A stretch of 14,294 nucleotides of DNA, taken from contig JAGWLG010000052.1 of assembly GCA_028864975.1 (NCBI GenBank), positions 1 to 14,294 on the forward strand, in the 5' to 3' direction. The stretch is from Thermoplasmata archaeon (GTDB lineage Archaea > Thermoplasmatota > Thermoplasmata > Lutacidiplasmatales > UBA184). This document shows, one piece after another, positions 10,645 through 14,101 of this stretch. Below the pieces are notes generated by a model. That model saw nothing but the letters and a program-made list of their open reading frames with translations, made no database searches and had not been told where the DNA came from. Each line of letters opens with the position of its first letter. Position 1 is the stretch's first letter. Position numbers and translations under genes: made by a program.

Positions 10645-11019
10645 ATGTCCGGCTCCCTGATCCAGCTCGGCGGGACCATGCCGCCCCCGACCGAGGTCAA
10701 CCTGACCATCACACCCTCGGCGCGCGAGCAGCTCCTCAAGCTCCGCGCGCAGGCCCAGGCAGAGACCAAGGGGCTGCGCCTGTTCGTCCAGGGAGGCGGC
10801 TGCTCAGGCCTGACCTACGGAATGCAGTTCGACGACGCGGGGGAGGGTGACCAGGTGCTCGACGTGGGGGACGGGCTCAAGGTCATCATCGACCCCGCCA
10901 GCGCCCCCGTGCTCAACGGCGTCACCGTGGACTTCCTGCTCTCCCTGGAGGCGTCGGGGTTCAAGATCAAGAACCCCAACGCGAAGAGCACCTGCTCCTG
11001 CGGGAAGAGCTTCGCCTGA
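10645..11019 (+). CDS. A-type Fe-S cluster carrier/assembly accessory protein (HesB/IscA/SufA/ErpA family)
   Basis: Canonical motifs LRLFVQGGGCSGLTYGMQFD, GVTVDF, GFKIKNPN and CSCGKSF. The alternative start is ATG 10678. Confidence 0.95.
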   Translation: MSGSLIQLGGTMPPPTEVNLTITPSAREQLLKLRAQAQAETKGLRLFVQGGGCSGLTYGMQFDDAGEGDQVLDVGDGLKVIIDPASAPVLNGVTVDFLLSLEASGFKIKNPNAKSTCSCGKSFA

Positions 11020-11029
11020 AGCGACCGCC

Positions 11030-11503
11030 ATGCCCCTTCCAAAGCGGGCCCGAATCGTTCAGGTCAATACCTCTTCCCGCGGAGGGATGCCGAAGCTGCC
11101 CGTCGGGGGGAGTGTCTGGGTTAGCCGCGAGGGTCTGGAAAGGGATCACAATCGCTACCGCACCGAGAAGCTTCGGGGCGATCCGGACTCCGCGGTTCTC
11201 CTTCTCGCCCTTTCGTCCATCCAGGCCCATGCCGAGGCGGGGTTCCCCGTGGGGCCGGGTTCGATGGGAGAGAACCTGACGCTCTCCGACCTCGTCGAGA
11301 CGGAGATGGCCCCGGGTCAGCGCTGGAAGGTCGGGAGGGCCGTGGTCCAGATCTCTCGAGCCTGCACTCCCTGCCACAATCTGGACATCTACGGAACCGG
11401 ATTGCTCAAGCAGGCGATCGGCCGGCGAGGCTGGTACGCGCGGGTCCTCGAGGAAGGGCCAGTAAAGGCGGGCGACGAGGCCGTGCTACTAGCTGACGTG
11501 TAG
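11030..11503 (+). CDS. MOSC domain-containing protein (YiiM-like, putative sulfur carrier / Moco-associated)
   Basis: IVQVN..GGMPK, GLERD, PGSMGENLT, GQRWKVG.AVVQIS..CTPC and RRGWYARVLEEGPVKAGD. The start is placed at ATG 11030, 10 nt after the hesB stop. The track's 10847 start overlaps hesB. Confidence 0.9.
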   Translation: MPLPKRARIVQVNTSSRGGMPKLPVGGSVWVSREGLERDHNRYRTEKLRGDPDSAVLLLALSSIQAHAEAGFPVGPGSMGENLTLSDLVETEMAPGQRWKVGRAVVQISRACTPCHNLDIYGTGLLKQAIGRRGWYARVLEEGPVKAGDEAVLLADV

Positions 11504-11523: not shown

Positions 11524-11530
11524 TTAAATA
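11524..11530 (+). promoter_or_regulatory. TATA box (TTAAATA) for the second HesB-family gene
   Basis: Consensus archaeal TATA 31 nt upstream of ATG 11561, inside the MOSC-hesB2 intergenic gap. Confidence 0.65.
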
Positions 11531-11560
11531 CCGCGGCGTCGTGATTTGCTTGGAACGAAC

Positions 11561-12022
11561 ATGGTGTCCCGTCTCGACTCCGCGAAGCCCGAACCTGTCT
11601 CGGTGACGAGCGCCTTCGACATGGTGGTCTCGGACCCCGCCCTCGAGCAGATCAAGGGGCTCCTCAAGGGTCAGAAGCCCGGCATGGCTGTCCGGGTCTT
11701 CGTCCAGATGGGGGGAGGGGGCGGCTGCTGCGGCGGCGGCTCTGGTCCCGCCTTCGGCATGGCCTTCGACAAGCCCAAGAATGGCGACGAGGTCGTGAAG
11801 CGCGACGGCGTCAACTTCGTCGTGGATCCCTACAGTGTCGATTTCTTGAACGGGGCCAACGTGGACTTCGTCAAGGAGAACGGAGACTCCGGTTTCAAGA
11901 TCACCAACCCCACCCTCCCCATGAGCGAGGCGGGGAGCGGCGGGGGCTGCGGCTCCTGCGGTGCCAGCTCGGACAACGGCGGCAGCTGCGGCTGCGGGTC
12001 CGGCGGCGGCGGCTGCTGCTAG
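11561..12022 (+). CDS. Atypical HesB/IscA-family protein with a CC motif and a Gly/Cys-rich C-terminal extension
   Basis: The HesB scaffold is recognisable (VRVFVQ..G.C, FGMAFD, D.V...DGV.FVVDPYS..FLNGANVDF, SGFKITNP). The usual GGCSG is replaced by GGGGGCCGGG and the tail reads GCGSCG..GSCGCGSGGGGCC-stop. ATG 11561 is preferred over TTG 11546 on TATA spacing. Confidence 0.85.
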   Translation: MVSRLDSAKPEPVSVTSAFDMVVSDPALEQIKGLLKGQKPGMAVRVFVQMGGGGGCCGGGSGPAFGMAFDKPKNGDEVVKRDGVNFVVDPYSVDFLNGANVDFVKENGDSGFKITNPTLPMSEAGSGGGCGSCGASSDNGGSCGCGSGGGGCC

Positions 12023-12137: not shown

Positions 12138-13100
12138 ATGGCCAAGTCAAAGCCGAAGCCCAAGCCCGCGGCAAAGAAGTCGAAGCCCGTCCCGAAGAAG
12201 GCTCCAGCCCCTCGGCCCAAGCCCGCGGCTCCGAGGAAGCCGAGCCCGGCCGACGAACTGAAGTCGCGGGAAGAGGCCATCCTCGAGAAGGGGAAGGAGC
12301 TGGTCTCGGCGTACAAGGAGCTCGCCGAGCACCAAGAGGAGTTCGACGACCGGCTCAAGCACCTCGAGACCAAGGAGCACCAGGTCGCCGCTCGGGAATC
12401 CACGCTGGGCTCCCTCGAGAAGAGGCTCGCGGACGCAGGCGTGGTCGAGGCCACGGCAGAAGAGATCGGAAGGGCCCGAGACCGTCTCAAGTCCCTTGAG
12501 GAGAAGCTCAAGGCCATGCGCGCCGATGTCGAGAAAGAGAAGCACGAGATCAAGGAGTGGCGTGAGGCCCTCGCGGGACGTGAAGAGAAGCTCGGGCAGT
12601 CCGAGAAGCTACACCTGACCCGCGAGAAAGGGCTCCTCGAAGAAGAAGAGGGCGTCAACCAGAGGAAGGCCGCCCTGGCCGAGGAAGAGGCCCGCCTGCG
12701 GAAGATCAACGACGACGCCGTTCGGGACCTGCACGACCGGGCCGCCCGGCTCGAGGAGCGCGAGCGCTCCCTCACGAACCTTCAGCAGGAGACCGAACGT
12801 CGGCTCTCCGAGTTCGCGCAACGGGAGAGCGAGGTCTCCCGCGTGGAGGCCGAGGCGCGCCAGCGACGGTCGGACGCGGAGAGTGCGCAGAAGGTCGTCG
12901 AAGAGGCCCGTATGGGCCTGGACGTGCGTGAGCAGTCTCTCCAGGAGCACGAGTCCACGCTCCTCGGGCACGCGGAGGCCCTGGAGCCCCACGAAAGGGC
13001 CCTGGAAGAGGCGGAAGGGCAGGTCCGCGCCCACCGCGAGAAGCTGGCGAAGGCTCGTGAGGCGCTCAAGTCGCACGTGGCCTCGCACCAGGCCAGGTAG
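12138..13100 (+). CDS. Long coiled-coil protein with Lys/Pro/Ala-rich basic N-terminus, function unknown
   Basis: 320 aa with GGAG upstream. Residues 1-37 contain 11 K, 2 R, 12 P and no acidic residue. The remainder is an E/K/R/L/A-rich helical region with recurring L-x-x-R-E heptad-like motifs. No TM or ATPase motif is visible. Confidence 0.85.
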   Translation: MAKSKPKPKPAAKKSKPVPKKAPAPRPKPAAPRKPSPADELKSREEAILEKGKELVSAYKELAEHQEEFDDRLKHLETKEHQVAARESTLGSLEKRLADAGVVEATAEEIGRARDRLKSLEEKLKAMRADVEKEKHEIKEWREALAGREEKLGQSEKLHLTREKGLLEEEEGVNQRKAALAEEEARLRKINDDAVRDLHDRAARLEERERSLTNLQQETERRLSEFAQRESEVSRVEAEARQRRSDAESAQKVVEEARMGLDVREQSLQEHESTLLGHAEALEPHERALEEAEGQVRAHREKLAKAREALKSHVASHQAR

Positions 13101-13781: not shown

Positions 13782-14101
13782 ACGAGAAGGCTGTCCGACT
13801 GAAGATCTACCTCGGGGAGTCCGACCGGTTCCAGGGGCGCCCAGCTTACCAGGTGGTCGTCGAGAGGCTCCGCGCGCGTGGCTTCTGGGGTGCGACGGTG
13901 TACCGAGGCATCTACGGGTTTGGGAAGCGGAGCTTGCTGCACTCGGCCTCGGTCCTCCGCCTCAGCGAGGACCTCCCGCTCATCATCGAGGTCGTGGAAG
14001 CCGAGGAGAAGGTCACGGCCATCGTACCGGAACTCAGCGAGATGGTGAAGGGCGGCCTCATCACGGTCGAGGACGTGAAGGTCCTTCGCCACCTTGGGTA
14101 G
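13772..14101 (+). CDS. DUF190 family (PII-like) protein
   Basis: LKIYLGESDRF.GRPAY, GATVYRGIYGFG and LRLSEDLPLIIEVVE. GGAGG at 13761-13765 precedes GTG 13772, which overlaps the crcB stop by 10 nt. DUF190 is a common crcB neighbour. Confidence 0.92.
   Translation: MELNEKAVRLKIYLGESDRFQGRPAYQVVVERLRARGFWGATVYRGIYGFGKRSLLHSASVLRLSEDLPLIIEVVEAEEKVTAIVPELSEMVKGGLITVEDVKVLRHLG

Follow-up and report, generated by a model that had tools for sequence, protein, structure and literature searches.

The window, as the whole stretch of 14,294 nucleotides that was analysed is called here, is contig C85 of a metagenome-assembled genome of 3.6 Mb with 67.4% GC and a completeness of 89.6%. Two genes of the HesB/IscA family lie on its forward strand, separated by a gene for a MOSC-domain protein (Table 1). 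The upstream one, HesB1, encodes a canonical A-type carrier (P0125), and the downstream one, HesB2, encodes the cysteine-rich protein studied here (P0001), whose translation holds exactly eight Cys in 153 residues and ends at a TAG stop. The ATG assigned as the start of HesB2 is supported by its close homologues, because these also open with MVSR.

Table 1. Features in and around the HesB genes, with positions counted from the first nucleotide of the window
Feature	Position	Strand	Remarks
ORF of more than 3512 aa	3..10538	-	runs off the window end
Canonical A-type carrier gene HesB1 (P0125; GGGCSG...CSCGKSFA)	10645..11019	+	TIGR00049 110.7 bits, full profile
MOSC-domain gene	11030..11503	+	PF03473 E 8.8e-20; 10 nt past the HesB1 stop
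TATA-box-like element TTAAATAC	11524..11531	+	begins 37 nt before the ATG of HesB2
Cys-rich A-type carrier gene HesB2 (P0001)	11561..12022	+	153 aa, stop included; PF01521, TIGR00049, 435 homologues
IscA/HesB beta-sandwich core (aa 21-117)	11621..11911	+	AlphaFold2, Foldseek, phmmer
Expanded Gly loop GGGGGCCGGGSGP with vicinal C56-C57	11711..11749	+	site of the first canonical ligand Cys
Vicinal pair C56-C57, within GGGGGCCGGG	11726..11731	+
Flexible Gly/Ser/Cys tail (aa 118-153)	11912..12019	+	CGSC, CGC, terminal CC
CGSC (C130/C133)	11948..11959	+
CGC (C143/C145)	11987..11995	+
Terminal pair C152-C153	12014..12019	+
Gene for a 320-aa coiled-coil protein	12138..13100	+	no Pfam family
Fluoride riboswitch RF01734	13291..13353	+	49.6 bits vs gathering score 34
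DUF190 (PF02641) ORF	~13790..14101		after the fluoride riboswitch

The cysteine load of P0001 exceeds chance. Cysteine averages 1.02% genome-wide, a content of at least 5.2% is reached by only 18 of 2748 crude ORFs, only three of these 2748 carry at least six Cys within their last 30 residues, and the motif C..C.{9}C.C occurs a single time in the genome, in P0001 itself. Six of the eight Cys fall within 32 residues of the tail (19% Cys), where CxC, CxxC and CC motifs are set in a Gly/Ser matrix. An earlier note made from the letters alone had described a HesB paralogue with eight Cys next to a canonical copy, a vicinal CC, a CGSC, a CGC and a terminal CC, and all of this is borne out by the translation and by the match to PF01521. 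The loss of the usual SF ending is likewise real, P0001 ending in CC and its canonical neighbour in CSCGKSFA.

Both family models and fold place P0001 among the A-type carriers. PF01521 matches residues 23-119 with an E-value of 5.3e-14 (52.8 bits vs a cut-off of 26.3), and it is the sole family found by the Pfam scan, with no metallothionein match and no PF01106 domain. TIGR00049 is reached with 61.9 bits vs a cut-off of 58.8, the alignment covering only profile positions 3-94 of 106, so that the C-terminal canonical ligand segment falls outside it, which counts against the interpretation favored below; members of class B, one of the three groups of homologues described further on, score under this cut-off. 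The scores stay far from the equivalog models of ErpA (NF010147, 56.8 vs 117), IscA (TIGR02011, 50.3 vs 150.6) and SufA (TIGR01997, 44.6 vs 136.2), and NfuA models score well under their cut-offs and cover the A-type part only. Membership of the HesB-like selenoprotein family was considered and rejected, given NF038090 at 56.0 vs 85, TIGR01911 at 40.8 vs 66.35 and no in-frame TGA. Against the PDB, phmmer matches P0001 to the structures of IscA, SufA, HI1723 and AQ_1857 with E-values of about 1e-11 to 2e-11. AlphaFold2, run with 121 homologues, assigns the core a pLDDT of 74-85, whereas the loop (residues 52-60) and the tail (residues 122-153) fall below 50, consistent with the flexible tail proposed in the earlier note; as the model gives no structure to loop and tail, it provides no geometry for a putative four-Cys site, a further point against the interpretation favored below. 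In Foldseek the core aligns with IscA 1R94 (TMt 0.80, probability 1.00) and 1S98 (TMt 0.80), with SufA 2D2A and the [2Fe-2S]-bound IscA 1X0G, and also with DsrR, an IscA-like protein from a sulfur-oxidation operon. A-type carriers are defined by the signature Cys-Xn-Cys-X-Cys, which binds a transient cluster (PMC7144353). This signature is present in P0001 as C57...C143-G-C145, conserved at 98-100% with extra Cys interposed, and its spacing is n = 85 vs 63 in the canonical neighbour, to which P0001 is 39% identical and whose GGGCSG aligns with the expanded Gly loop. By family and fold P0001 is thus a true A-type carrier, in which both ligand-bearing segments are expanded and flexible.

With ErpA, IscA and SufA (1R94, 1S98, 2D2A, 1X0G) P0001 shares the PF01521 fold, a ligand Cys in a Gly-rich loop, a disordered tail with a CxC motif and the character of a small soluble protein. 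It differs from them in carrying 6-8 Cys instead of three, in a loop that is 3-4 residues longer and contains a vicinal CC, and in a tail about 25 residues longer that has an added CxxC and a terminal CC and no SF ending. E. coli NfuA, where a degenerate A-type domain is combined with an Nfu domain that holds a CxxC cluster site, resembles P0001 in joining an A-type domain and an extra CxxC pair in one polypeptide. This is an analogy of layout only, since P0001 has no PF01106 domain, its CxxC lies in a disordered Gly-rich tail and its A-type domain retains its own Cys. A layout that recalls NfuA, with a degenerate A-type domain and a second module, is seen in the third PF01521 gene of the genome (L003 1099-1797, minus strand, contig C35 of G000), which encodes a Cys-less HesB-like domain followed by a C-terminal part that we take to be a DUF59/SufT-type Fe-S assembly domain.

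A word-indexed search returned 435 homologues of P0001, every named one from Thermoplasmata, and conservation was computed on the 121 best. All of these retain C57 and C133, while C56, C143 and C145 each occur in 98% and C130 in 95%, compared with a mean column identity of 44%; the strict pattern of a loop CC plus a C-x2-C-x9-C-x-C tail is kept in 94. The tail pattern begins 12-13 residues past FKITNP, and the residues between its Cys pairs (135-139) match P0001 in only 4-64% of sequences. The earlier note had let its proposal stand or fall with the conservation of the tail cysteines in close orthologues, and this conservation is found for CGSC and CGC, as well as for the loop CC (95-100%), and is missing for the terminal CC (7%). 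The extra Cys are confined to the two segments that bear the canonical ligands. The loop can be read as GGC extended to GGCC, with a run of CGCG units in a sister clade, and the tail as the C-terminal C-x-C extended to C-x2-C-x9-C-x-C, with a third Cys pair in the genus of the window (CGCG, or CC in the window's own species). The tails thus look like two to three iterations of the canonical GGCGCG, and the loops like iterations of GGC, so that the description of the tail as metallothionein-like needs to be revised: it resembles a repeated canonical C-x-C ligand motif and not a foreign module, and the tail CGC, formerly counted as an addition to the A-type ligand set, belongs to that set. Judged from these alignments, the ligands appear to have been multiplied by expansion of GGC/TGC codons and then fixed by selection.

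Three groups are resolved in the tree, each with SH-aLRT values of 89-99, which support the monophyly of each group and do not bear on the order among them or among the canonical copies. The window clade (12 sequences) contains P0001; class C (89 sequences, about 130 aa) has the loop CC and the tail motif as in the window clade, without the terminal pair; and class B (19 sequences) has a loop enlarged to 3-4 Cys in CGCG-like units and tails of the type CGCGSGGCGCG or ...GGGGCC, in front of which His-Gly stretches are common. The number and placement of the Cys thus vary by clade (6, 7-8, 7-8). The earlier note had suggested searching for HesB proteins that combine a CC with a Gly/Cys tail. A homologue search at a threshold of E <= 1e-18 yields a compact subfamily, which occurs in 123 of the 132 genomes that represent the window's GTDB family (or 120 of 129 when the unpublished G515-G517, all three positive, are set aside), in none of the six genomes of the order's two sister families and in one of 391 genomes elsewhere in the phylum Thermoplasmatota. 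That single outlier, G066, is the only strong match outside the window's family; it encodes a 157-aa HesB (L090 2581-3054, minus strand, contig C4) with the loop GGGCCG and a tail in which HG repeats are interleaved with CGCG, and its genome also contains an Nfu gene. The subfamily is also compact in a library of representatives at 50% identity, since only five clusters reach E <= 1e-30. Window-clade genera carry one Cys-rich copy per genome, two matches are often found in two other genera, and several MAGs hold one class-B and one class-C locus. In a species-representative collection, the 80 best loci come from Thermoplasmata MAGs, except for one titled only 'bacterium'; many bear soil or peat isolate names, and among them are Candidatus Lutacidiplasma silvani and a record named as a Lutacidiplasmatales archaeon. 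The window's GTDB family presumably corresponds to the order described as Lutacidiplasmatales, whose members are aerobic or facultative and limited to environments below pH 4.5 (PMC9287336). An archaeal form of this kind is not described in the phylogenomic papers on A-type carriers, which use the three-Cys definition (PMC2682760, PMC7144353), and the 2009 survey detected A-type carriers in only a few of the archaeal genomes then available. A search of the literature on archaeal A-type carriers, on Cys-rich or metallothionein-like HesB and on Thermoplasmata/Thermoplasmatota found no description of the subfamily, and the source annotations of the homologues are generic.

The Cys-rich gene is linked to a canonical one in two of the three groups. 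The order HesB1-MOSC-HesB2, followed by the coiled-coil gene, is kept in the window clade wherever the fetched DNA extends far enough (L004-L006, L084-L086; L007 is cut off upstream of MOSC), and a canonical HesB lies directly upstream in all 22 class-B loci, as classified by tail motif, with a gap of 79 bp in L089, the sole class-B locus with called genes. Only the window clade has MOSC inserted between its HesB genes; the class-B tandems lack it. The window clade and class B have different flanking genes, so that the linkage of HesB1 with HesB2 persists through local rearrangement, although its weight is inflated by shared ancestry because all loci belong to a single taxonomic family. No canonical HesB was seen within the fetched flanks of any of the 28 loci with a class-C tail. 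In class-C loci (for instance L087 7001-12300), genes for an ABC-2-type transporter, SUI1, a rhodanese and a GcvH/TusA-like protein adjoin in 23-37 of 38 cases. In L089 (6185-13048) a complete gene cluster for haem biosynthesis (GlutR, PBGD, HEM4, ALAD, a chlorite-dismutase-like protein, GSA aminotransferase and URO-D) follows the tandem, an arrangement not seen in the other class-B loci. SufB, SufD and a NifU_N scaffold are encoded on another contig of the window's genome, so that biogenesis machinery exists to feed the carriers.

The earlier note had also ascribed to HesB2 a TATA box of its own, and the element is indeed conserved: a T(T/C)TAAATA / TTATATA block (TTTAAATA/TTATATA) is invariant in six related window-clade loci, in a spacer with a mean identity of 58%, and it stands out as AT-rich against the GC content of the genome. 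A similar TCTAAATA is found about 31 nt upstream of the ATG of HesB1, with which the MOSC gene is probably co-transcribed. These positions fit a separate transcription of HesB1-MOSC and HesB2. A scan with bacterial promoter and terminator models found nothing, a result that is uninformative for an archaeon.

Family membership and fold are observed, as are the conservation of the Cys, the distribution over lineages, the gene linkage and the conserved TATA element. On this basis it is proposed, with moderate confidence, that P0001 carries Fe-S clusters (or Fe) on a multiplied set of ligands and would cooperate with the canonical carrier encoded next to it. The core would dimerise as IscA or SufA do, and the 6-8 thiolates of each protomer would ring the normal cluster pocket, so that a single protomer could ligate a cluster completely, or hold a second cluster or extra iron. 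The outcome would be a carrier of higher capacity, or a more protected one, comparable in function to an A-type domain with an Nfu-like CxxC site attached. Expressed from what looks like a promoter of its own, the Cys-rich carrier would probably pair with the upstream canonical one, either in a two-carrier relay or in a heterocomplex as in ISCA1-ISCA2 or IscA-ErpA. With these mitochondrial and bacterial pairs the locus shares two diverged A-type carriers that are encoded together and conserved as a pair; the known partners, however, have no multiplied Cys, and here a heterocomplex or relay is what the gene pairing suggests. A bolder form of this proposal, which is given only a slim chance, is a self-sufficient carrier that would form [4Fe-4S] clusters, holding two [2Fe-2S] or one fully ligated cluster per protomer and using its own CxxC or vicinal dithiols as two-electron donor. 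If true, it would provide Nfu-less, aerobic, acidophilic archaea with a ferredoxin-independent route from [2Fe-2S] to [4Fe-4S], passed on via the canonical HesB. PF01106 was not found anywhere in the 89.6%-complete genome. A complementarity with Nfu was considered and dropped, since PF01106 is absent from all nine members of the window's family that were sampled, but also from many neighbouring families without a Cys-rich HesB (0 of 48 in f2, 0 of 26 in f4), and since G066 has both Nfu and a Cys-rich HesB; no signal specific to a replacement of Nfu is therefore left.

The same thiols could instead serve metals other than a cluster. E. coli IscA has itself been proposed as an iron chaperone, and P0001 might be a metal buffer or metallochaperone in which the HesB core anchors a metallothionein-like Gly/Cys tail (with His in relatives) that binds Fe2+, Zn2+ or Cu+ through thiolates, either donating iron to cluster assembly or serving as a soft-metal sink in strongly acidic, metal-rich soils. 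With its 19% Cys and its CxC, CxxC and CC motifs in Gly/Ser, the tail has the look of a metallothionein or metallochaperone tail; EGHGHG-type stretches occur in class-B tails and HG repeats in the tail of G066, tail length and Cys number differ by clade, unrelated A-type carriers bear similar Gly/Cys/His tails, and the reported habitats of the hosts have a pH below 4.5 (PMC9287336). Since the Cys counts vary by clade and the tails of class B and G066 are His-rich, a looser metal-binding tail fits as well as a defined cluster site. On the other side, the fixed x2/x9/x1 spacing and the near-invariance of the four tail Cys suggest a defined site over a sponge, nearly every genome of the family has the gene, which is linked to a HesB of housekeeping type, and neither the window nor the annotated loci that were fetched showed genes for resistance to copper, mercury, arsenic or zinc. 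Metal buffering is therefore considered unlikely, although it is given more weight than the other alternatives. P0001 as a metallothionein proper was rejected, because no Pfam family other than PF01521 matches and the Cys-rich part is a 32-aa appendage of a folded domain; the metallothioneins differ from it in that its tail sits on a folded Fe-S carrier domain and keeps four Cys at a spacing fixed across the family. In a search of residues 110-153 against proteins of 269-2000 aa for the tail as a portable module nothing was found, which is weak evidence. For the tail as a RiPP precursor, or its C-terminal CC/CXC as a Rab-like prenylation signal, the annotated loci offered neither a maturase nor a transferase gene.

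A relay of sulfur is a further use to which vicinal and CxxC thiols could be put: the extra Cys would carry sulfane sulfur, as persulfide or polysulfide, from a sulfurtransferase (MOSC here; rhodanese and TusA near class C) to acceptors. The position of the MOSC gene between both HesB genes in the window clade, the rhodanese and GcvH/TusA genes within 5 kb of the class-C gene in 23-27 of 38 loci and the presence of DsrR among the fold matches speak for it. MOSC is missing, however, from class-B tandems and class-C loci and thus is not a core partner, and the best NCBIfam matches of the MOSC protein, all sub-threshold, are to MoaC/MOSC-domain and 6-hydroxyaminopurine-reductase (YiiM-type) proteins, not to a sulfurtransferase. 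The class-C genomes probably belong mostly to a few closely related genera, whose relatedness may explain the synteny, which also includes the unrelated SUI1 and ABC-2 transporter genes. Such a relay is regarded as quite improbable. Equally doubtful is the opposite view, that the Gly/Cys residues beyond the six conserved Cys, especially GSGGGGCC, are neutral low-complexity drift by GGC/TGC slippage in a 67% GC genome, with no function of their own. It draws on the terminal pair, which the earlier note had compared with the C-terminal Cys-Cys of MerA, used for metal hand-over; this comparison is not supported, as only 7% of the 121 homologues end in CC. The three other species of the window's genus end in CGCG (...GGGGCGCG, ...CGCGSGGGGCGCG), their DNA reading GGC-TGC-GGC-TGC-GGT-stop vs GGC-TGC-TGC-stop in the window; sister genera end in CGCGSC, CGCGSGGCGG or CGCGS, that is, with one or no extra Cys, and the length of the Gly run varies freely. 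Under the favored reading, too, the terminal CC is a recent, species-level variant of the CGCG end at trinucleotide scale and not a conserved functional hallmark, and it may be largely the product of neutral slippage. Nevertheless, at least one further Cys lies past the first CxC in most window-clade and all class-B members, and the CC ending recurs independently in class B (L033, L034, L042, L056, L060, L069) and in class C (P0019), which points to a degree of selection for keeping a terminal thiol pair.

A ligand-multiplied carrier would be of interest beyond this locus, as a whole archaeal family keeps a canonical carrier together with one or two copies with a doubled ligand set. If the extra Cys alter cluster type, stoichiometry, robustness to oxygen or acid, or iron handling, this would amount to a natural experiment on the tuning of carrier capacity, and a protein of 130-153 aa with defined Cys to mutate offers a compact test system. 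For annotators it is a warning that distinct subfamilies are hidden under the name 'iron-sulfur cluster assembly accessory protein'. Judged from their sequences, Cys-rich appendages seem to recur on the A-type fold, with the caveat that the query profile itself favors such tails: in the library of representatives at 50% identity, many unrelated metagenomic A-type carriers (P0133-P0274), one of them from Candidatus Heimdallarchaeota, have a loop CC and/or Gly/Cys/His tails ending in CC, CGC, CSH or CGH. They resemble P0001 in these traits but are distant relatives at most, with E-values of 1e-14 to 1e-27, compared with at most 1e-33 for the five representatives of the subfamily; in many, the canonical CGCGxSF precedes the extension, and the C-x2-C-x9-C-x-C tail is found in none. 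Gly/Cys/His extensions on unrelated carriers may thus be an undescribed recurrent theme.

The giant ORF that diverges from the HesB cassette takes up three quarters of the window. The 320-aa protein encoded past HesB2 combines a basic N-terminus, rich in Lys and Pro, with a long coiled coil; all window-clade loci encode it after the Cys-rich HesB, at 44-77% identity. Further downstream, an archaeal genome is seen to carry a fluoride riboswitch, scoring above its gathering score and followed by the DUF190 ORF.
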